The position numbers were made by a program, and so were the translations under genes. Source: Escherichia coli (lineage in GTDB: Bacteria; Pseudomonadota; Gammaproteobacteria; Enterobacterales; Enterobacteriaceae). From it: DNA of 64,000 nucleotides. Location: the NCBI RefSeq assembly GCF_003334815.1, contig NZ_QOWO01000013.1, one strand, 5' to 3'. Within the stretch, counting starts at the first letter, position 1. Each line of letters opens with the position of its first letter. The notes under the pieces were generated by a model. It made no database searches and was not told the DNA's origin. It was given only the letters and a program-made list of their open reading frames with translations. This document shows positions 5,249-62,264 of the stretch, piece by piece.

Positions 5249-5347
5249 ATGACTACTTCCATGCTCAACGCAAAACTACTACCAACTGCGCCATCCGCCG
5301 CAGTGGTCGTCGTGCGTGTGGTGGTGGTCGTCGGCAATGCGCCGTAG
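5249..5347 (+). CDS. ivbL: ilvB operon leader peptide, 32 aa
   Basis: Hand translation gives MTTSMLNAKLLPTAPSAAVVVVRVVVVVGNAP followed by a stop; Val/Leu-rich control codons. Confidence 0.9.
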   Translation: MTTSMLNAKLLPTAPSAAVVVVRVVVVVGNAP

Positions 5348-19989: not shown

Positions 19990-20099
19990 TTTTCCCTCTG
20001 CATACTGTTTTGTCGTTTATGTATGCAGGCATGATAGCAAAAATGGCGAGGATGGCTCTGTTTGCGCCACGCCGATTTTTCTTAGCCCAGACTGGTGAG

Positions 20100-21284
20100 C
20101 TAAATATCTTTAATAAACAGCAGGCAAATCATCGCAATACCCAACATCCCTATCGCCAGCCAGAACAACGCATGGTAGCTCCAGATTTCAACCATAATTC
20201 CGTCAACAGAGCCGGCGATAATCCAGCCGACGCGTGAAGTATTTGCATATAACGTTGTCGCAGAGCCTATTTTTTCAGGCATCAAGTCCTGAAAATAAAG
20301 CATGCCGATACCACAGAGAATACCAAGGAAGATGGCATTAAGAATTTGCAATTCCAGCTCAACCGCCGGAGTCGTCGCCATGAGTACGCTGGCGTAAAAA
20401 CACATTCCACTCACGATAGCAATGAGCATTAATAGTCGCTTGCCAATACGTTTCATGTAATAGCCTGCGATTAACATCATCGGAATTTCCAGACCGGCAG
20501 CGATACCAATCATTTCTCCAGCCAGTTTATCGGTTAGATGCAGTTCATCAATAATAAATAGCGGCATATTTATCATGTAGAGATTATTCGCCGCCCACAT
20601 CATTGAACAGACCACAAAAAGTAGCCGCGTATCCCGCTTCCTGTGGGTGGAGGGTAAAATTTCTACGGGTTGGGTAACGACAGGAATATTTCTTTGTATT
20701 GATGGCAAAAACAACCAGACTATCAGTCCGCAAACAACAAATGCGATGGCAGCGGTGAGATACATCACTTTAAAACTAAATCCCATTGCCAGTTCATAAG
20801 CGAGCGGTGGCCCGATAACCCAGGCAAGCGAGATCTGAGCACGTAAAAATGTACTGAACATGACCGTCTCACGGCCTGTTCTGTCGGCGTGTTCACGGGC
20901 GAGGGCGAACATTTGCGGGTTTGCGGTGGAAGCAAAACTACTCAGAAGTACGCCCGTTGAGAGGAGAATGAAGTAGTTGCGATTCCACGCAAAAAGCGTG
21001 CAGGCCAGCACTCCAAATAAGCAACATAGCAGAATCAGTAATTTACGGTCGCCTTGTTTATCGGAGTGCCTTGCCAGAAATTGACTGACCAGAATTCCCA
21101 TAATAGCGCTACCGGTGAAGAAAAAACCTACCATTATAGGACGGGCTTTCAGTTCATCTGCGAGGAATATACTTAGGGTAGGAGTCTGAAGAGCGCCCGC
21201 AATACCCGTCAGAAAGGCGACAAGTAAAAATGCCGCGGCAGTGAGATCAAGTATTTTTGATGGAGTGGTAGCCGTTTTTTGCAT
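20100..21284 (-). CDS. setC: Sugar efflux transporter C (MFS, SET family)
   Basis: 394 aa. Confidence 0.85.
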   Translation of the reverse strand: MQKTATTPSKILDLTAAAFLLVAFLTGIAGALQTPTLSIFLADELKARPIMVGFFFTGSAIMGILVSQFLARHSDKQGDRKLLILLCCLFGVLACTLFAWNRNYFILLSTGVLLSSFASTANPQMFALAREHADRTGRETVMFSTFLRAQISLAWVIGPPLAYELAMGFSFKVMYLTAAIAFVVCGLIVWLFLPSIQRNIPVVTQPVEILPSTHRKRDTRLLFVVCSMMWAANNLYMINMPLFIIDELHLTDKLAGEMIGIAAGLEIPMMLIAGYYMKRIGKRLLMLIAIVSGMCFYASVLMATTPAVELELQILNAIFLGILCGIGMLYFQDLMPEKIGSATTLYANTSRVGWIIAGSVDGIMVEIWSYHALFWLAIGMLGIAMICLLFIKDI

Positions 21285-21920
21285 TCTTCTGAATCACCGG
21301 GCGAAAAAATATAACTGAGTTACAAATAAGTACCAGTCGAATGAGTATTGTATTAAGAATTTTTGAGTATCGCTGATACAACCAGAAAGCAATGCTAGCG
21401 CAATATTATAGGGCCAGCAATTGAGATTATTAGTAAAAGCATGTTAAGAATTAATTACCGAATTTATATATTAATTATAGTAAGGCAATGAGCTATTTTT
21501 GATAGTAAAAATAAAACAAGTTGATTTGATATATTAAATGAACAAATTAATCTTGATGGCAGTCTGATTATTGGTGAAGTTTATAGTCAGTTTTTTTCGC
21601 CAGCGGTTAAAGAAATAGAATAGTCGTATAAAAAAGGGTGTTCTGGGGCGAGTAAAACAACATCTTCACCTTAATGGCGATACAGTTGGCTGAGAGTCAG
21701 CAGGGGGGCAAATCACCTGCAAATAAACACGGCGCATACTGGCGTGAATATCGCGGATGCGTTCGAGGACAGAAGAACCGACAGGCGGATTCTTCAGCCG
21801 CTCATCGTCCATCACAAAACCTTAGACCAGGTATTCCTGAAGCCGATTGAATATTGAGCAGTAGAAAATATCTGGATTGACAGTATTACAAGGGGTTGGA
21901 GAACGTCAGGAGAGGCATTT

Positions 21921-22015
21921 TGGCGGAAGATCACAGGAGTCGAACCTGCCCGGGACCGCTGGCGGCCCCAACTGGATTTGAAGTCCAGCCGCCTCACCGG
22001 AGACGACGATCTTCC
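21921..22015 (-). tRNA. selC: tRNA-Sec (selenocysteine, anticodon UCA)
   Basis: Reverse complement reads GGAAGATCGTCGTCTCCGGTGAGGCGGCTGGACTTCAAATCCAGTTGGGGCCGCCAGCGGTCCCGGGCAGGTTCGACTCCTGTGATCTTCCGCCA. Confidence 0.95.
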
Positions 22016-22307
22016 GCGCCTCGATTGCTACATGGAGGCGGGGCGCATTATAGCTACTTCCTTGAGTTTCTACATCCCCCAGATCAGTTTTTTCCGCCTA
22101 ATACACGCAGCGTATTATCACGAAAGCATTATAGTTCATATAAAACCCATATTTTACAATGATATATGAGCGGAATTAACGCTACCACGATCACATAAAA
22201 CAAGAATCATAAATTAATAACCAGATATCGGAATATTCGCTCTCACAGGGATGGTTTACAAAATGCGTTATCGGTCTCAGCACCCCTATAGCATCAAGGA
22301 AAAGCAG

Positions 22308-23695
22308 ATGAAGAGTGAAGTGTTGTCCGTTAAAGAGAAAATTGGTTATGGCATGGGAGACGCCGCCAGCCACATTATTTTCGATAACGTAATGTTATAT
22401 ATGATGTTCTTTTATACCGATATTTTTGGCATTCCTGCCGGTTTTGTCGGAACCATGTTTTTGGTCGCTCGTGCACTGGATGCGATTTCCGATCCTTGCA
22501 TGGGGTTGTTGGCCGATCGAACGCGCTCTCGCTGGGGTAAATTTCGTCCGTGGGTACTGTTTGGCGCACTGCCATTCGGGATCGTCTGTGTACTGGCCTA
22601 TAGCACGCCAGATCTCAGTATGAACGGCAAAATGATCTATGCAGCAATTACTTACACCCTACTTACCTTACCTTACTTTATACCGTCGTCAATATCCCTT
22701 ACTGCGCATTGGGTGGTGTAATCACCAATGACCCGACTCAGCGTATCTCGCTGCAATCCTGGCGTTTTGTGCTGGCGACCGCGGGAGGCATGCTTTCTAC
22801 TGTTCTGATGATGCCACTGGTTAATTTAATTGGCGGTGATAATAAACCACTCGGTTTCCAGGGCGGTATCGCGGTCCTTTCCGTGGTGGCATTCATGATG
22901 CTGGCATTTTGTTTCTTCACCACTAAAGAACGCGTTGAAGCACCACCTACAACAACGTCTATGCGGGAAGATTTACGTGATATCTGGCAAAACGACCAGT
23001 GGCGGATTGTCGGTTTACTAACCATTTTCAATATCCTGGCGGTGTGCGTACGCGGTGGGGCGATGATGTATTACGTCACATGGATTTTGGGCACGCCGGA
23101 AGTGTTTGTCGCTTTTCTCACCACTTATTGCGTGGGTAACCTGATTGGTTCCGCACTGGCAAAACCTCTGACCGACTGGAAATGTAAAGTCACTATCTTC
23201 TGGTGGACGAACGCCCTGCTGGCAGTGATTAGCCTCGCGATGTTCTTTGTTCCCATGCAGGCCAGCATCACTATGTTTGTCTTCATCTTCGTGATTGGTG
23301 TGTTGCATCAACTGGTGACACCTATCCAGTGGGTAATGATGTCCGATACCGTCGACTACGGCGAGTGGTGCAATGGTAAACGCCTGACCGGGATCAGTTT
23401 TGCTGGCACGCTGTTTGTGCTCAAACTGGGGTTGGCCTTCGGCGGCGCTCTTATCGGCTGGATGCTGGCTTATGGCGGATATGATGCGGCAGAAAAAGCG
23501 CAGAACAGCGCCACGATTAGCATCATTATTGCGCTATTCACGATTGTTCCGGCGATCTGTTATTTGCTGAGCGCGATTATCGCTAAACGCTACTACTCAC
23601 TCACGACGCACAATCTGAAAACCGTTATGGAACAGCTGGCTCAGGGTAAACGCCGTTGCCAGCAACAATTCACCTCTCAAGAAGTGCAGAACTAA
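22308..23695 (+). pseudogene. yicJ: GPH-family sugar:cation symporter YicJ, disrupted by a +5 frameshift
   Basis: Reading frame switches at 22671..22675 within cttac-cttac-cttac (22662..22676); ORFs 22251..22721 and 22709..23695 together span 1388 nt, i.e. 460 codons + stop + 5. Confidence 0.8.
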
Positions 23696-52300: not shown

Positions 52301-53090
52301 ATTAAAAGAGCCGCTTGCCACACTTTGGCGTGGTAAAGATGCTTTTGCAGAGGTCAAAAAACTGAACGGCGAGGTCTTTCGTGAACTGGAGACTCGTCGT
52401 ACATTACGCTTTGAACTGTCCGGGAAAAGCTATTTTCTTAAATGGCACAAGGGGACGACATTAAAAGAGATTATAAAAAATCTACTCTCATTGCGGATGC
52501 CCGTTTTGGGCGCAGACAGAGAGTGGCACGCTATTCATCGCCTGAGTGATGTTGGCGTTGATACAATGAAGGGCATTGGGTTTGGCGAAAAAGGGTTAAA
52601 TCCATTAACTCGCGCATCATTTATTATTACCGAAGATCTCACTCCCACAATTAGCCTTGAAGATTATTGTGCCGATTGGGCAGTCAACCCGCCTGATATA
52701 CGTGTTAAGCGTATGCTGATCGCACGTGTAGCAACTATGGTGCGTAAAATGCATACTGCAGGGATAAATCACCGCGACTGTTACATTTGCCACTTTTTGC
52801 TTCATTTGCCATTTACTGGCCGGGAAGATGAATTAAAAATTTCAGTTATCGATCTGCATCGGGCACAGATACGTGCAAAAGTACCGCGCCGCTGGCGCGA
52901 TAAAGACCTGATTGGTTTATATTTCTCATCAATGAATATTGGCCTGACGCAAAGAGATATCTGGCGATTTATGAAGGTTTATTTTGGGATGCCTTTACGC
53001 AAAATATTGTCTCTTGAACAGAATTTATTGAACATGGCAAGCGTTAAGGCCGAGCGTATTAAAGAGCGAACACAACGCAAAGGATTATAA
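52293..53090 (+). CDS. waaP: LPS core heptose(I) kinase
   Basis: 265 aa; 8-nt overlap with waaG. Confidence 0.95.
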
Positions 53091-53126
53091 AAATATTTAT
53101 TAGTATGTACTGGAACTAACTTTATT

Positions 53127-54062
53127 ATGACTATTTATTTTATAAATTGGGTTGCAGATTATGAATTAAAAATGATTCAGTACCTGAAAAAAAAGTACAA
53201 GATAAAAAATATAACAACACCAAAAAAATATAACTGGATTAATAAAAAAATATCAAAAATAGGGATGGATAATGCATGGCTGGGGCGATTATTCATCAAG
53301 CATTACCTCAATGATATTAAAAAAGATGACATAATTATCATTAATGACAGTGTTGTTAATAAAGGTATCAATAAACAAATATTAAAAAATATTAACTGTC
53401 ATAAAGTTTTGCTTCTAAGAAATACTGTTGGCGAAGATTTTATTCTTGATAACGCGAATTATTTCGATATTATATATGATTTTGAGCATAGATTTATAGG
53501 GAATGAAAAGATCAAGGCAATAGAACAATTTTTTCCTATAGGAATGGATGAAATTAGAAATTATAGTTTATCTGACAAAAATAACAGCCAGCCAATATGT
53601 TTTTTCCTTGGTCGTGATAAAGGGCGTCTTCAAATAATTAATGAGTTAGCCGAGAGATTAACAACACTAGGATGTAAGCTAGATTTTAATGTTGTCAAAG
53701 ATAAGACATCATCTACGACTTCAAAGTATTTGATTGAAAAACAAATATCTTATGAAGAGAATATTAGAAGAACATTAAATGCTAATATAATTGTTGATAT
53801 AACCAAAGAAAACCAATCTGGCTGGACTCTTCGTATACTTGAGGCACTATTTTTCAATAAAAAATTAATTACTAATAATATAAATGTATTTGGTTCAGAA
53901 ATCTATAGTGAATCTCGCTTTTTTATAATAGGTCATGATGATTGGGATAAGTTAGAGTATTTTATTAACTCATCTGTTAAACCAATGGATTATGATAGTT
54001 TATATAAATTCAGTCCAGATAAAATGATGTCAACGATTGTTTCTGATTTTATAGACAAATAA
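53127..54062 (+). CDS. waaS: LPS core biosynthesis protein WaaS (K-12 core type)
   Basis: 311 aa; very AT-rich. Confidence 0.8.
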
Positions 54063-54105
54063 AACCGTTAAAACAGTGAGTTTTACTCAATTAATGAGAG
54101 TTTCT

Positions 54106-55185
54106 ATGAAAATAGCGTTTATCGGCGAAGCTGTTTCTGGATTTGGCGGCATGGAAACTGTCATCCGTGATGTTATTACTACCTTCAGGCAACAACATAT
54201 CCAAAGTGAAATGTTTTTCTTTTGTCGTAATGACAAAATGGATAAGGGATGGCTGGAAGGTATTAAATACTCATGTTCATTTTCCAATATTCGTTTAGGT
54301 TTTTTGCGTCGGGCGAAACATATTCATGCTCTAAGTAAATGGCTTCAGGAGTACCAACCAGATATCGTTATTTGTATTGATGTGATCTCCTGCCTGTTTG
54401 CCGCAAAAGCACGTAAAAAATCAGGAATTGATATGCCAGTATTTTCATGGCCACATTTTTCTTTAGATCACAAAAAACATGCTGAATATATCACCTGTGC
54501 CGACTATCATTTAGCAATCAGCTCTGGCATTAAACAGCAAATGATTAATCGAGGTGTAGCAGAATCGACGATAAATGTTATTTTTAATCCCGTCGAAACT
54601 AAAGACTCAGTCATTCCCGCGCCCGAGGAAGGTGAAACGGCAACGTTTATTTATGTTGGGCGTATGAAATTTGAAGGCCAGAAAAGAGTTAAAGACCTGC
54701 TTGATGGCTTATCACAAGCGAAAGGTAACTGGAAACTCCATGTATTGGGTGATGGCTCCGATTTCGAAAAATGCCAGGCTTATGGTAGAGAATTAAATAT
54801 TGATGATCGAATTGTCTGGTATGGTTGGCAACAATATCCCTGGGAATTGGTCCAGCAAGATATTGAAAAAGTGAGTGCGTTATTGCTCACGTCATCTTTT
54901 GAAGGTTTCCCAATGACCCTACTTGAAGCCTTGTCGTGGGGGATTCCTTGTATCAGTGCCGATTGTGTCTCCGGGCCTGCTGACATTATTCAACCTGATG
55001 TCAATGGCCATCTGTATCAACCGGGAGATATTGCTGGTTTTGTAACTCTTCTAAATAAATATATAGCAGGTGAAATTCATATCGAACATGAAAAAATTCC
55101 TGCGTCGATCGATGAATTTTACCAATCGAAGTATTACGATAGATTACATAAGGTAATTATTTCTGCTATTTCCCGGAGGAAATAA
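54106..55185 (+). CDS. waaB: LPS alpha-1,6-galactosyltransferase
   Basis: 359 aa from MKIAFIGEAV... Confidence 0.85.
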   Translation: MKIAFIGEAVSGFGGMETVIRDVITTFRQQHIQSEMFFFCRNDKMDKGWLEGIKYSCSFSNIRLGFLRRAKHIHALSKWLQEYQPDIVICIDVISCLFAAKARKKSGIDMPVFSWPHFSLDHKKHAEYITCADYHLAISSGIKQQMINRGVAESTINVIFNPVETKDSVIPAPEEGETATFIYVGRMKFEGQKRVKDLLDGLSQAKGNWKLHVLGDGSDFEKCQAYGRELNIDDRIVWYGWQQYPWELVQQDIEKVSALLLTSSFEGFPMTLLEALSWGIPCISADCVSGPADIIQPDVNGHLYQPGDIAGFVTLLNKYIAGEIHIEHEKIPASIDEFYQSKYYDRLHKVIISAISRRK

Positions 55186-56243: not shown

Positions 56244-57260
56244 GTGGACTCATTTCCTGCCATAGAGATAGATAAAGTTAAAGCCTGGGATTTTCGGCTA
56301 GCTAATATAAATACTTCTGAATGTTTAAATGTTGCCTATGGTGTCGATGCTAATTATCTTGATGGTGTAGGTGTTTCCATCACATCAATTGTCCTAAATA
56401 ATCGATATATTAATCTTGATTTTTATATTATTGCTGATGTTTATAATGATGGTTTTTTTCAAAAAATTGCAAAGCTTGCAGAGCAAAACCAATTAAGAAT
56501 CACGTTATATAGAATTAACACTGATAAGCTCCAGTGCTTGCCTTGTACACAGGTCTGGTCAAGAGCAATGTACTTCCGTTTATTTGCATTTCAATTATTG
56601 GGTTTAACGCTTGATCGTTTGCTTTATCTTGATGCAGATGTTGTTTGTAAAGGCGATATTAGCCAACTATTACATCTGGGTTTAAATGGAGCGGTTGCTG
56701 CTGTTGTTAAAGATGTTGAGCCAATGCAAGAAAAGGCGGTATCCAGGTTGTCTGATCCTGAATTACTTGGGCAGTACTTTAATTCCGGTGTCGTTTATTT
56801 AGACTTAAAAAAATGGGCTGACGCAAAACTAACAGAAAAAGCGTTGTCTATTCTTATGAGTAAAGATAATGTTTATAAATACCCTGATCAGGATGTTATG
56901 AATGTCTTACTGAAAGGGATGACATTATTTTTGCCTCGTGAGTACAATACAATTTATACAATTAAAAGTGAATTAAAAGACAAAACACATCAAAACTATA
57001 AAAAGCTGATTACAGAAAGTACTCTTCTTATTCATTATACAGGTGCAACTAAACCGTGGCACAAATGGGCAATTTATCCATCGGTAAAATACTATAAAAT
57101 AGCTTTAGAAAATTCCCCCTGGAAAGATGACTCTCCACGAGATGCGAAATCAATTATTGAATTTAAAAAAAGATATAAACATCTTTTAGTGCAACATCAT
57201 TATATCTCAGGAATTATAGCAGGAGTCTGTTATCTTTGCCGAAAATATTACCGTAAATAA
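56244..57260 (+). CDS. waaJ: LPS alpha-1,2-glucosyltransferase (GT8)
   Basis: 338 aa; GTG start; paralogous to waaO. Confidence 0.85.
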   Translation: MDSFPAIEIDKVKAWDFRLANINTSECLNVAYGVDANYLDGVGVSITSIVLNNRYINLDFYIIADVYNDGFFQKIAKLAEQNQLRITLYRINTDKLQCLPCTQVWSRAMYFRLFAFQLLGLTLDRLLYLDADVVCKGDISQLLHLGLNGAVAAVVKDVEPMQEKAVSRLSDPELLGQYFNSGVVYLDLKKWADAKLTEKALSILMSKDNVYKYPDQDVMNVLLKGMTLFLPREYNTIYTIKSELKDKTHQNYKKLITESTLLIHYTGATKPWHKWAIYPSVKYYKIALENSPWKDDSPRDAKSIIEFKKRYKHLLVQHHYISGIIAGVCYLCRKYYRK

Positions 57261-57277
57261 CATTTAACTGGTTTATT

Positions 57278-57976
57278 ATGATTCAGAAGAGCAAGATCAA
57301 AGACTTGGTTGTTTTTACCGATGAAAACAATTCAAAGTACCTCAATGTATTAAATGACTTCTTGTCTTATAATATAAATATCATCAAGGTTTTTCGTTCT
57401 ATTGATGATACAAAAGTTATGCTTATTGATACCGATTACGGTAAATTGATTCTTAAGGTTTTTTCTCCGAAAGTTAAGCGTAACGAACGTTTCTTTAAGT
57501 CTCTGTTAAAAGGTGATTATTACGAACGCCTTTTTGAGCAAACCCAAAAAGTACGAAATGAAGGGTTAAATACACTCAATGACTTTTATTTATTGGCTGA
57601 ACGGAAAACCTTACGTTTTGTCCATACTTATATCATGATCATCGAGTATATTGATGGCATAGAGTTGTGTGATATGCCCGATATTGATGATGCGCTAAAA
57701 AATAAAATTCAGCAATCAATTAATGCCTTACATCAACATGGCATGGTTTCTGGCGACCCCCATCGTGGTAACTTCATTATAAAAAATGGTGAGGTTCGAA
57801 TTATCGATCTCTCCGGAAAGCGTGCTTCAGCGCAGCGTAAAGCGAAAGATCGTATTGACTTAGAGCGTCATTACGGTATTAAAAATGAGATTAGAGATCT
57901 AGGCTATTATCTTTTAGTATATCGTAAAAAAATGCGCAATTTTATTCGGCGTTTGAAAGGGAAACCAGCGCGCTAA
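57278..57976 (+). CDS. waaY: LPS core heptose(II) kinase
   Basis: 232 aa. Confidence 0.85.
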   Translation: MIQKSKIKDLVVFTDENNSKYLNVLNDFLSYNINIIKVFRSIDDTKVMLIDTDYGKLILKVFSPKVKRNERFFKSLLKGDYYERLFEQTQKVRNEGLNTLNDFYLLAERKTLRFVHTYIMIIEYIDGIELCDMPDIDDALKNKIQQSINALHQHGMVSGDPHRGNFIIKNGEVRIIDLSGKRASAQRKAKDRIDLERHYGIKNEIRDLGYYLLVYRKKMRNFIRRLKGKPAR

Positions 57977-58046: not shown

Positions 58047-58898
58047 ATGAAGAATATTAGATACATTGACAAAAAAGATGTTGAAAACCTGATTGAAAAT
58101 AAAACATCTGATGATGTTATTATTTTTCTTTCGGGCCCTACATCGCAAAAAACACCTTTGTCAGTATTACGAACAAAGGATATTATTGCTGTCAATGGTT
58201 CTGCGCAATATCTGTTAAGTAATAATATCGTTCCTTTTATATATGTACTTACAGATGTCCGATTTTTACATCAGCGTCGTGATGATTTTTATAAATTTAG
58301 CCAGAGAAGTCGTTATACCATAGTAAACGTTGACGTTTATGAACACGCTTCCAAAGAAGATAAACTTTATATCCTCCAGAACTGCCTCGTATTACGGTCC
58401 TTTTACCGTCGGGAAAAAGGTGGTTTTATAAAGAAGATTAAATTTAATATTTTGAGACAGATTCACAAAGAACTGCTGATCTCTGTACCGTTGTCTAAAA
58501 AAGGTCGTCTGGTTGGATTTTGCAAGGACATTAGTCTTGGTTATTGCTCATGCCATACTATTGCCTTTGCTGCAATTCAAATCGCATATTCACTTAAGTA
58601 TGCGCGGATTATTTGTTCTGGTCTTGATTTAACGGGTAGCTGTTCTCGTTTCTATGATGAGAATAAAAATCCCATGCCCTCGGAATTAAGTAGGGATTTA
58701 TTCAAAATATTGCCATTTTTTCGTTTTATGCATGATAATGTAAAAGATATTAATATTTATAATTTATCAGATGATACAGCTATTTCTTACGATGTAATTC
58801 CATTTATTAAACTTCAAGACATCAGTGCAGAAGAATCAAAAGATATGACAAGAAAAAAAATGCAATATAGAACTTCAACCGATTCTTATGCTAATTAA
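58047..58898 (+). CDS. waaZ: LPS core biosynthesis protein WaaZ
   Basis: 283 aa. Confidence 0.8.
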   Translation: MKNIRYIDKKDVENLIENKTSDDVIIFLSGPTSQKTPLSVLRTKDIIAVNGSAQYLLSNNIVPFIYVLTDVRFLHQRRDDFYKFSQRSRYTIVNVDVYEHASKEDKLYILQNCLVLRSFYRREKGGFIKKIKFNILRQIHKELLISVPLSKKGRLVGFCKDISLGYCSCHTIAFAAIQIAYSLKYARIICSGLDLTGSCSRFYDENKNPMPSELSRDLFKILPFFRFMHDNVKDINIYNLSDDTAISYDVIPFIKLQDISAEESKDMTRKKMQYRTSTDSYAN

Positions 58899-58930
58899 TC
58901 ATCCTGAAACTAAAATAATATGGTATAAAA

Positions 58931-60004
58931 ATGCGCTTAGGAACTTTTCACAAAAAGAAAAGATTTTATATAAACAAAATCAAGATTAATTTCCTTTCTT
59001 TTTTATTTCGTAATAAAATAAATAATCAAATTACAGATCCAGCACAAGTTAAATCATGCCTTATTATTCATGATAATAATAAACTTGGTGATCTAATTGT
59101 ATTAAGTTCGATTTATCGTGAACTTTATAGTAAAGGGGTTAAAATAACTCTTCTCACAAATAGAAAGGGTGGGGAATTTCTCTCTAATAATAAAAATATA
59201 TTTGAGTTCTGTATTAAAGAATCAACCGGTTTTCTTGAAATGCTTACTCTATGTAAGCATCTGCGGGATTTACAGTTCGATATTGTATTAGACCCCTTTG
59301 AAACTATGCCCTCATTTAAGCATAGCTTAATATTATCAAGTTTAAAAGATTCTTACATTCTGGGTTTTGATCATTGGTATAAGCGTTACTATTCATTTTA
59401 CCATCCCCACGATGAATGTTTAAAAGAACATATGAGTACACGAGCAATAGAAATACTGAAGCATATTTATGGTGAGGGTAAATTTTCCACCAACTACGAC
59501 TTGCATTTACCAGTAGATGTTGAAGATAAAATAAAAGAATTTATTGGAGATACAAGAATAGTCATTATTAATCCATTAGGTGCAAAAAAAATATGCCGTC
59601 TTACGTTTGAGCAAATAAAAGTTATATATCAAGAAGTGAAAACACACTTTGAAAATTATCGGATTATATTTACCGGGTTACCGCAAGATTTATTGACAAT
59701 ACCAATACTTGAAATCGAAACACTACCATTTGATGAGTTTATTTATACCGTTGCGTTGACCAAGTATAGTGATTTTGTCATTTCTGTTGATACAGCTCTT
59801 GTTCATATCGCTGCGGCTTATCATAAACCAACGCTTGCATTTTACCCTAATTCACGTACTCCGGAATATCCCTCGCATTTAATTTGGTCCCCGAATCATC
59901 ATAAATCTATACAAATAGTATCCCCAACATATACGGTAAAAGATATCGATACTGAAACTTTAACTAATTCAGTAAAGAGATTAAGTTGTATAGATAAGAA
60001 GTGA
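58931..60004 (+). CDS. waaU: LPS heptosyltransferase IV
   Basis: 357 aa. Confidence 0.8.
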   Translation: MRLGTFHKKKRFYINKIKINFLSFLFRNKINNQITDPAQVKSCLIIHDNNKLGDLIVLSSIYRELYSKGVKITLLTNRKGGEFLSNNKNIFEFCIKESTGFLEMLTLCKHLRDLQFDIVLDPFETMPSFKHSLILSSLKDSYILGFDHWYKRYYSFYHPHDECLKEHMSTRAIEILKHIYGEGKFSTNYDLHLPVDVEDKIKEFIGDTRIVIINPLGAKKICRLTFEQIKVIYQEVKTHFENYRIIFTGLPQDLLTIPILEIETLPFDEFIYTVALTKYSDFVISVDTALVHIAAAYHKPTLAFYPNSRTPEYPSHLIWSPNHHKSIQIVSPTYTVKDIDTETLTNSVKRLSCIDKK

Positions 60005-60035: not shown

Positions 60036-61295
60036 TTAATTAATTGTATTGTTACGATTATTAATGACGAGTAAGAGGACTATAGCGGATATAATGATAA
60101 TTGGAATGCTGCGTGCCCATATGATCACATCACTGAGTCCAATCCCCACAATGCCAAGCGTTAATATCAACAAACCCAAAGCTCGTTTTTTATATGCTAT
60201 ATAAAATAGTGAAAAATAGAGGAAAAGTGTGGAAAAAATTCCCATCAGACCTTTCAGTGACCCTGCTTCAATTATCTCATTATGTAGATGTACGTTAGAA
60301 AACTCCAATGCCCCTCTTAGCCTATTGTGTTCTGCAACTAACAAATTCATACTTTCAGCGCGTGACTCTGCTGATCTAAATGAAAAAGGTGACTTTATGA
60401 ATATATTTAAACCAATTTCGTACATTGCCAGTCTTGCACCTAGGGAAGTAACACTATTAGCATTGGTATAACTGTTTAAGTCATTTAATGCTTCATTATA
60501 GCGATTCTGTATTGGTTTATTAAATATAATAACAATGCTAGCTAATATAGCAATTAGTAGAACAATAGAGGAAGTGAATTTCTTGGGTGATTTATTATAA
60601 TAAGCTATTAATGCAGCAACACAAATTATAGGGAACAGGAGTAGGGTTGCTCTGGTTTGTGTTAGCGCCAGAACATAAAGTACCGCGCAACTATTTAATA
60701 AAAATAAAAAAGGATGATTTTTCTTAGTATAAAGAATCGCAACGCCACTAACTATCCCTATTAGCATTGTTGAATATGCTGCTCCTGTTGCCGTTCCTAC
60801 ACCAAAAGAAATGCGGTCATTTTCATGAATGCTATTAATATACATTGCATATCCAGCAATTAGAAATGACAGAGAATACAAAGTGTATAATACACTCTCT
60901 TTTTTTGATTTTAGCTGGCTAGTTAGTGTCAAGAAAACAATAAAAGAACCAAATATAAATATTTTGGCAGTATTTAAATAACTATGGTAAGTAGCACGAA
61001 ATGGCGAATTATCTACTTTAAACGCAGAATACCAAATTAAATCAAGCAAGCCTATTAAAAATATAGAAAGGGGAAGAATAAGGTTTTTTATATTATAATT
61101 TTCTTGTCTGCCACGTAAAATTAGTGACAATAAGCAAACTATAGCAGTGATATTATATATTTTTATGCTGAAAGTATTATCGACGAATGCAATTATCATT
61201 GAAAAAAAACATAATATATAAGTTATTATCTCTAAAATCATTGATGATTTCAGAGTGTAAGGTTTCAATGAATGAAGTTTAAAGGATGTTAGCAT
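60036..61295 (-). CDS. waaL: O-antigen ligase
   Basis: 419 aa polytopic membrane protein. Confidence 0.9.
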   Translation of the reverse strand: MLTSFKLHSLKPYTLKSSMILEIITYILCFFSMIIAFVDNTFSIKIYNITAIVCLLSLILRGRQENYNIKNLILPLSIFLIGLLDLIWYSAFKVDNSPFRATYHSYLNTAKIFIFGSFIVFLTLTSQLKSKKESVLYTLYSLSFLIAGYAMYINSIHENDRISFGVGTATGAAYSTMLIGIVSGVAILYTKKNHPFLFLLNSCAVLYVLALTQTRATLLLFPIICVAALIAYYNKSPKKFTSSIVLLIAILASIVIIFNKPIQNRYNEALNDLNSYTNANSVTSLGARLAMYEIGLNIFIKSPFSFRSAESRAESMNLLVAEHNRLRGALEFSNVHLHNEIIEAGSLKGLMGIFSTLFLYFSLFYIAYKKRALGLLILTLGIVGIGLSDVIIWARSIPIIIISAIVLLLVINNRNNTIN

Positions 61296-61304
61296 GTTTT
61301 ACCT

Positions 61305-62264
61305 TTATAATGATGATAACTTTTCCAAAACTGCTTGACTGTTGAGGTTAATTAAATTTTCTCTTGGAGCCCTACATACCATCTGATTCTTCCCATACCC
61401 ACCAATTAATCCCGGATCGGTTGGTCCATAAACCGTGATATTGGGTCTATCCAGTGCCGCCGTTAAATGGCTTAACCCCGTATCCACCGACACTACAAAT
61501 TTAGCCCCGGCCAGCACGCGGGCAACGCCTTCCAGACTCATCTTCGGCAATACTTCAACATAAGCAAATCCTTCCGCCAGTCGTTTCGCCCGTTCTTCCT
61601 CATGCGGCGCGCCCCACGGAAGTTTAATCCGTATTCCTGAATCAGCCAGTAAACCAATCAATTCTCGCCAGTGTTCTTCCGGCCAGTGTTTATCATCACG
61701 GGTCGTCGCATGAAGAAATACGGCATATTCGCCAGCATCTGTAGGCAGGTTCGTCAGAAAATGCTGTGCGATAGCATAATCGCCCTGGGTTTGCGGTTTG
61801 CTATAGCCCAAACTTTTGGCAAACAGTTCGCGGGTGCGTTCTACGGCGTGCTGCTGTTTTGCAATATGATGCTTACGATTGTAAAACAGGCTGGCTAAAG
61901 GTTCGCGAGCGGTTTGCCAGTCCATGCCATGCTTTACGCCATGCGCCAGACGCGTCACCAGCGCCGCGCTTTTTACCAGCCCCTGAGCGTCGATAACTGC
62001 GTCATAGTTCTCTGCTTGTAGCGCTTCACGAAACGCTTTGCGTTCCGCTTTTATGGGGGCCGAGAACCAGGCTTTACGCCAGCGACGTATTGCCACAGGA
62101 ATAACTCGCTCAACGGCAGCGTGCCAGGAAGGAATCTGTGCGAACCCTTCTTCCACCACCCAGTCAAACTTAATCCCTGGGATTGCCTGCTGGGCATCAG
62201 TGAGTGCGGGCAACGTATGGAGAACATCGCCCATCGACGATGTTTTAACGATCAAAACCCGCAT
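61305..62264 (-). CDS. waaC: LPS heptosyltransferase I
   Basis: 319 aa MRVLIVKTSSMGDVLH... Confidence 0.95.
   Translation of the reverse strand: MRVLIVKTSSMGDVLHTLPALTDAQQAIPGIKFDWVVEEGFAQIPSWHAAVERVIPVAIRRWRKAWFSAPIKAERKAFREALQAENYDAVIDAQGLVKSAALVTRLAHGVKHGMDWQTAREPLASLFYNRKHHIAKQQHAVERTRELFAKSLGYSKPQTQGDYAIAQHFLTNLPTDAGEYAVFLHATTRDDKHWPEEHWRELIGLLADSGIRIKLPWGAPHEEERAKRLAEGFAYVEVLPKMSLEGVARVLAGAKFVVSVDTGLSHLTAALDRPNITVYGPTDPGLIGGYGKNQMVCRAPRENLINLNSQAVLEKLSSL

Follow-up and report, generated by a model that had tools for sequence, protein, structure and literature searches.

A selC locus of Escherichia coli without a modern island holds a rhuM pseudogene fragment and an AT-rich promoter island upstream of setC

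The tRNA-Sec gene selC is a hotspot of integration at which islands such as LEE and PAI-I536 insert. When no island lies beside it, is the DNA that follows merely intergenic, or does it hold the remains of earlier occupants? We addressed this question in a 64-kb stretch of E. coli DNA (the whole of which we call the window), in which an earlier note had described selC as unoccupied, followed by about 636 bp of noncoding DNA and then by setC, with neither an integrase nor a direct repeat of the tRNA 3′ end. That note had further suggested that a conspicuously AT-rich part of the spacer could be either an H-NS-bound promoter region or a decayed island remnant. The only tRNA gene detected in the window by ARAGORN is tRNA-Sec at 21921..22015 on the minus strand, with anticodon TCA (UCA); it matches the Rfam covariance model RF01852 at 83.8 bits (gathering score, 47; E = 2.8e-17) and corresponds to selC (b3658) in the identical K-12 region. 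The gene downstream, at 20100..21284 on the minus strand, is a 394-aa open reading frame named setC in the identical RefSeq and K-12 records. The spacer between the two is exactly 636 bp (21285..21920; 38% G+C) and 100% identical to that of E. coli K-12 MG1655. Gene order is the same as in K-12 (yicI-yicJ-selC-yicT-setC-yicL-nlpA), and the 8-kb neighborhood departs from MG1655 at two points, a single-nucleotide polymorphism within setC and 5 bp inserted into yicJ. The longest open reading frame in the spacer is at most 61 aa. "Noncoding" is apt only insofar as no intact gene is present, and the description passes over an annotated pseudogene fragment (yicT/rhuM). No integrase was found between selC and yicL, either among the open reading frames of the window or in the identical K-12 annotation, which lists only yicT and setC there. 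A terminator was also sought after selC, and none was convincing: a weak terminator-like hairpin at 21680..21666 scored no better than shuffled sequence.

The attachment-site core comprises the last 24 nt of the tRNA and ~15 nt downstream (21906..21944, minus strand). We searched the 64-kb window for a second copy of the selC 3′ end using the last 30 nt of selC plus 21 nt downstream, both by blastn-short and with fuzzy k-mers (14-mers with at most one mismatch; 16-, 18-, and 20-mers with at most two), and found none. The same kind of repeat is readily seen in island-bearing strains, as well as after rhuM in two of the selC loci that we compared (L002 and L019). Since the core occurs only once in the window, the site is empty, and the window represents the island-free attB at which present-day selC islands insert. 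Of 5,426 complete E. coli genomes, 2,489 (46%) contain an intact match to a 191-bp probe spanning the selC/spacer junction, and 3,619 contain the whole spacer. The difference, ~1,130 genomes, consists of strains with an island between selC and the spacer. In these, the match on the spacer side extends into the last 24 nt of the tRNA, so that a 24-nt selC 3′-end repeat precedes the spacer, while selC itself lies in a second match. Strains NDM4, CE10, GN03551, and CDE6306 exemplify this arrangement, with island genes directly adjoining the repeat and spacer; these are a primase-helicase pseudogene in GN03551 and CbtA/CbeA toxin-antitoxin, DUF4942, and other genes in the remaining three. Homology with the B2-type allele described below also stops at 21906, at the edge of the core. 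The earlier description of selC as unoccupied, without integrase or repeat, is thus right in the modern sense, and the junction concerned is common to nearly half of complete E. coli genomes.

An older occupant has nevertheless left a trace in the spacer. As a query we used full-length RhuM (345 aa) from strain EC21GDE043, in which rhuM is the first gene after selC. In a tblastn search, this protein matched window positions 21675..21842 on the minus strand at an E value of 4e-19, with 41 identities among 67 residues (61%) over residues 121 to 187. The 168-bp segment coincides with K-12 yicT (b4653), annotated at 21681..21812, and with a rhuM pseudogene ("RhuM family protein") annotated by RefSeq at 21681..21842. 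The first 120 and last 160 codons are missing, and the ~56 codons that are left carry an 8-codon (24-bp) internal deletion and an in-frame TAA; an intact RhuM-domain open reading frame (~250 residues) is not present in the spacer. Unlike the AT-rich stretch, the fragment has normal G+C content. It is separated from selC by a 78-bp leader (21843..21920, minus strand) homologous to DNA upstream of rhuM in other Escherichia species; this homology extends ~58 bp past selC in Escherichia sp. E1V33 and ~82 bp in E. whittamii. On its other side, a 46-bp segment of unassigned origin (21629..21674) separates it from the AT-rich stretch.

The query protein matches Pfam family PF13310 (5.7e-118) and the PADLOC candidate defense family PDC-S05 (E = 2.8e-173), while neither NCBIfam nor PHROGs holds a family for it. 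RhuM homologs are scattered over phages and plasmids of many phyla. In the literature, rhuM is described as a gene of SPI-3, which in Salmonella Typhimurium 14028 is inserted at tRNA-selC (PMC3680342), and a second publication also places it in SPI-3 (PMC11770342). A literature search by the name "yicT" returned no relevant paper.

Comparison of alleles bears on the age of the truncation. We aligned five other K-12-type alleles with the window, four of which are diverged (93.7 to 97.2% identical over the spacer). All five have the same 5′ junction, 24-bp deletion, and 3′ junction of the rhuM fragment, and the truncation therefore arose before these lineages separated. Where the window has TAA, the four diverged alleles read AAA, and NDM4, which is identical to the window here, also reads TAA; the in-frame stop is thus a later mutation in an already dead gene. 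The earlier note had proposed that a spacer of identical length and sequence across island-free E. coli, with no att-like repeat, would refute its reading. This test was poorly chosen. Among genomes that have it, the spacer is indeed 618 to 638 bp long, at least 93.7% identical, and without att-like repeat, yet it holds a relic nonetheless, because decay preceded the divergence of these lineages. The near constancy of the spacer where present, together with the lack of an att repeat, an integrase, or any RNA family besides the tRNA, would favor the view that it is pristine, never-occupied intergenic DNA with the AT-richness of an ordinary promoter. We regard that view as scarcely credible, since it is refuted by an independently annotated rhuM fragment, roughly one E. 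coli genome in three lacks the spacer or has other DNA in its place, and G+C content falls to 29.6% over 331 bp, far below the 41% of the neighboring selC-yicJ intergenic region.

What, then, is the AT-rich stretch? Its composition is as unusual as had been noted: positions 21300..21619 have 29% G+C against a window mean of 49% (standard deviation, 8%), and just 2.4% of 320-bp intervals are as low, with all intervals of lower G+C content falling in the waa gene cluster. The 100-bp minimum at 21449..21548 (18%) belongs to the lowest 0.025%. Panyukov and Ozoline (PMC3661553) listed 78 promoter islands in MG1655 (U00096.2) in 2013, defined with PlatProm as regions of at least 300 bp with at least eight predicted start points per 100 bp. 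One of these, entry 3834632_331 in their Table 1, is located between selC(+) and setC(+) and maps to window positions 21298..21628 (331 bp; 29.6% G+C). The same mapping places four other published islands on G+C troughs of 26 to 31%; these lie in the waa cluster at 53019..54120, 56812..57534, 58652..59202, and 60823..61318, the most AT-rich spots of the window. Entry 3834632_331 carries the H-NS code "A," denoting binding in all compiled ChIP studies, and of five predictors of foreign genes, one was positive for the associated gene (PMC3661553). Furthermore, peaks of the sigma-38 and sigma-32 holoenzymes in genomic SELEX, which reports RNA polymerase binding in vitro, fall within the selC-setC spacer (PMC5493296). 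Both H-NS occupancy and low transcription of the stretch are as reported in papers on K-12, with which the window is identical here, and the suggestion of an H-NS-bound promoter region thereby finds support in the literature.

Our own motif searches gave mixed results. Hexamers resembling the −10 element (TANNNT) number 27 per 331 bp in the stretch, compared with a window mean of 8.4, which places it in the top 2.7% of the window. A two-hexamer sigma-70 consensus scan of 20900..22400 returned one site against 4.1 expected from shuffles, and the H-NS high-affinity motif matched twice against 1.06 expected, with no enrichment beyond base composition. Because the strict sigma-70 scan is unenriched, the term "promoter island" rests on the published PlatProm prediction and on an AT-driven density of −10-like sequences.

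The suggestion of a decayed island remnant holds for the rhuM fragment and not for the AT-rich stretch to which it had been applied, where homology to rhuM or to anything else searched was not detectable. We considered whether the stretch instead derives from coding DNA that has decayed, be it the missing 3′ half of rhuM or an island gene next to it, with no role in regulating setC. It lies directly 3′ of the rhuM fragment, where the 160 missing codons would be expected, islands and their cargo are often AT-rich, and in Pseudescherichia, Morganella, and Providencia the DNA beyond full-length rhuM also has only 27 to 42% G+C. However, a tblastn search with full-length RhuM found nothing significant in 21285..21674, and comparison of 21285..21700 with ~120 selC loci, including DNA downstream of intact rhuM, gave no match with an E value below 0.25 (tblastx and blastn). 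No paralogous copy of the stretch was found in 5,426 E. coli genomes, where it is single copy. It also diverges more slowly than the DNA flanking it: E. coli alleles differ by 2 to 3% over the AT-rich stretch, similar to neighboring genes, compared with 2 to 13% over the 46-bp segment at 21629..21674 and 3 to 10% over the leader. This slow divergence hints at some constraint, although the segments compared are short. Given these results, we consider an origin as decayed coding DNA improbable.

Alternatively, a small RNA or a small protein might be encoded within the stretch and have escaped annotation. Short open reading frames are present on the minus strand at 21294..21392 and 21247..21381, and RNA polymerase holoenzymes bind to the spacer in vitro (PMC5493296). 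On the other hand, an Rfam search up to E = 1 gave tRNA-Sec and, inside setC, a chance hit to a group II intron (E = 0.87) but nothing else, the folds of three tested segments were no more stable than those of shuffled sequences, and the K-12 annotation of the spacer consists of yicT alone. Promoter islands, moreover, are described in PMC3661553 as yielding short abortive oligonucleotides and not stable transcripts. We therefore think a hidden gene very improbable.

The AT-rich stretch travels with setC: the stretch was found in 3,630 genomes, setC in 3,722, and the whole spacer in 3,619. SetC is a sugar-efflux transporter of the major facilitator superfamily (NCBIfam TIGR00899, 646.7 bits, above the cutoff), the orthologs of which we found only in E. 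coli and E. albertii (90% identity), with SetB as next relative at 72 to 73%. Single-base variation in the window at position 20522 results in the change T255A relative to MG1655 SetC, an allele also seen in other E. coli strains. On the other side of selC, yicJ contains three tandem copies of CTTAC at 22652..22666 (plus strand) where MG1655 has two, causing a frameshift and a stop after about residue 137. Over 22600..22730, the 5,426 complete E. coli genomes include no exact match to the window, while one O111:H8 strain has the same length at 99.2% identity; the extra copy probably arose by recurrent slippage, as a private mutation, or through a sequencing error. A SetC relative of 81% identity (P0058, locus L129) that looked like an outgroup context was set aside. 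It is encoded on a metagenome contig (ERZ650280 NODE_1714) at ~4× coverage, with fruB of the setB neighborhood upstream and yicL-nlpA of the setC neighborhood downstream, and this contig was probably misassembled as a chimera across the paralogs setB and setC.

Together with the rhuM fragment, the AT-rich stretch and setC form a variable segment between selC and yicL (20019..21905, minus strand) that is carried by about two-thirds of E. coli genomes and replaced by other DNA elsewhere. In the B2-type strain EC21GDE043, homology to the window breaks at 20018 and 21906, and the interval instead contains full-length rhuM, a selC 3′-end repeat, and a hypothetical gene; this alternative allele occurs in at least 844 genomes. 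The segment, setC included, is likewise replaced in Escherichia sp. E1V33 (L101), where the selC-yicL interval (+112..+1506 after selC) has no setC and encodes a 404-aa open reading frame on the opposite strand with a Cys-rich N terminus. Because homology to the B2-type allele breaks at 20018 and 21906, the rhuM fragment, AT-rich stretch, and setC together are one allele of a variable selC-yicL interval.

Such an allele might have had a single origin. The whole 1.9-kb selC-yicL segment could be one old, integrase-less fossil islet acquired in a single step, of which setC is the surviving cargo and the AT-rich stretch a silencing handle. The swapping of 20019..21905 as a unit in B2-type E. coli and E1V33 would fit this possibility, as would the restriction of setC to E. 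coli and E. albertii, its G+C content (46%), its status as a 72 to 73% paralog of setB, and the one prediction in five that calls the associated gene foreign (PMC3661553). In E. albertii, full-length rhuM follows selC and setC adjoins yicL, which is also in keeping with it. However, the segment has no repeat boundaries in the window, and in particular no selC 3′-end repeat between setC and yicL, while in B2-type E. coli and Pseudescherichia vulneris the repeat comes directly after rhuM, such that rhuM alone is bracketed, without setC. DNA upstream of E. albertii setC, although AT-rich as well, does not align with the E. coli stretch, and the locus went unflagged by four of the five predictors of foreign genes (PMC3661553). 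We thus hold a single fossil islet to be possible while leaning against it. In E. albertii, an IS1 end ~360 bp upstream of setC (L126 1..78) breaks assemblies at that point.

To place the rhuM fragment in a wider context, we scanned for the selC 3′ end in one genome per species and recovered 120 loci. Full-length rhuM lies within ~150 to 250 bp of selC in Pseudescherichia vulneris, an Enterobacter sp., Morganella psychrotolerans, and Providencia rustigianii, and fragments of the gene are found by selC in Klebsiella, Kosakonia, Xenorhabdus, Photorhabdus, Erwinia, and two Providencia species. Escherichia sp. E1V33 retains a 14-codon remnant of the rhuM start at +112 after selC. In E. albertii, full-length rhuM occurs at +1658, behind an interval that looks like a collapsed island; this interval (L010, +164..+1584 after selC) contains a P4-type integrase fragment and a DUF4942-like open reading frame, as judged from translations. 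In B2-type E. coli (L002, repeat at 5258..5285) and P. vulneris (L019, repeat at +1391..+1406 after selC), intact rhuM is the sole gene between selC and a partial copy of the selC 3′ end, forming a 1.2- to 1.4-kb cassette without integrase. Three contigs filed as metagenome-assembled genomes of Bacillota, Clostridiales, and Sphingobacterium (L006, L032, and L052) carry an exact enterobacterial selC 3′ end, and two of the three also encode a RhuM ~78% identical to the E. coli protein; these contigs are probably misbinned.

These comparisons show rhuM to be an old and often eroded neighbor of selC, with modern islands inserting between it and the tRNA. Given the repeats in other genomes, we infer that rhuM reached selC by site-specific integration, the window itself being without an att repeat. 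RhuM identity roughly follows host kinship (87% in E. albertii, 79 to 81% in Pseudescherichia and Enterobacter, and ~70% in Morganellaceae), a pattern that would also fit an ancient, vertically inherited selC neighbor lost many times. One might go further and speculate that rhuM, a candidate single-gene phage defense, has been at selC since before the radiation of the Enterobacterales as an integrase-less mini-cassette bracketed by selC att repeats, that it was thereafter repeatedly eroded and replaced, and that the K-12 block of rhuM fragment, AT-rich stretch, and setC is a fixed fossil of this layer; we think this unlikely. If it were so, the H-NS platform at the far edge of the hotspot could also help to silence newly arriving islands.

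Altogether, we consider it very probable that the locus is an empty selC attB next to two older layers, namely a dead rhuM fragment and an H-NS-bound AT-rich stretch ahead of setC. Of the evidence for this, the anatomy, K-12 identity, genome census, and rhuM homology were computed here, while H-NS and RNA polymerase binding come from the literature. According to this scenario, rhuM, a gene associated with mobile elements that lies beside selC in many Enterobacterales, lost its 5′ part by deletion, its 3′ part by truncation, and 24 bp internally, so that 168 bp are left, a reduction that came before the diversification of the E. coli lineages carrying the fragment. The 331-bp AT-rich stretch would serve as an H-NS binding platform, the dense −10-like sequences of which may bind RNA polymerase; by holding the stretch silent, H-NS may keep the Escherichia-specific setC poorly expressed. 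The two suggestions of the earlier note are each partly right, for different subsegments: the rhuM fragment is the relic, and the AT-rich stretch is the promoter island.

Published work or the annotation of K-12 and RefSeq already covers the features of this locus, and what is mildly new is the breadth of selC-rhuM adjacency across the Enterobacterales. The locus offers a clean reference for an empty selC attachment site and matters little beyond correct annotation. It illustrates that an "unoccupied" tRNA hotspot can still hold fossils of earlier occupants, and its AT-rich flank is an example of H-NS-bound promoter islands marking genes of restricted distribution. The recurrent adjacency of selC and rhuM provides a modest lead for work on defense genes at tRNA hotspots.

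Relative to MG1655 (b3658-b4653-b3659), the spacer is identical and the differences, SetC T255A and the frameshifting third CTTAC in yicJ, both lie outside it. The window matches promoter island 3834632_331 in position, AT-richness, −10-like density, and the presence of a gene of restricted distribution downstream, with H-NS binding taken from published ChIP; it differs in that a simple sigma-70 consensus scan is unenriched, and only one in five foreign-gene predictors is positive. As in SPI-3 of Salmonella, a rhuM homolog lies downstream of selC, and a RhuM from Salmonella shares 85% identity with that of E. coli. By contrast, the window keeps just 56 rhuM codons, and its 1.9-kb selC-yicL interval is too small for the other SPI-3 genes, mgtCB, misL, and marT, none of which is present between selC and yicL, where we find only the rhuM fragment, AT-rich stretch, and setC. 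Within Salmonella, rhuM was not found in the first 3 to 4 kb after selC in loci of two subspecies (arizonae and diarizonae). The B2-type allele of EC21GDE043 shares the selC and yicL flanks with the window and has rhuM first after selC, but there the gene encodes the complete 345-aa protein and precedes a degenerate selC 3′-end repeat and a 122-aa hypothetical gene, with setC and the AT-rich stretch absent. Finally, CP4-type selC islands, as in NDM4 and CE10, use the same attachment site, with the island lying between selC and a 24-nt repeat that is followed by the same spacer; compared with these, the window, without integrase, repeat, or cargo, represents their empty target.
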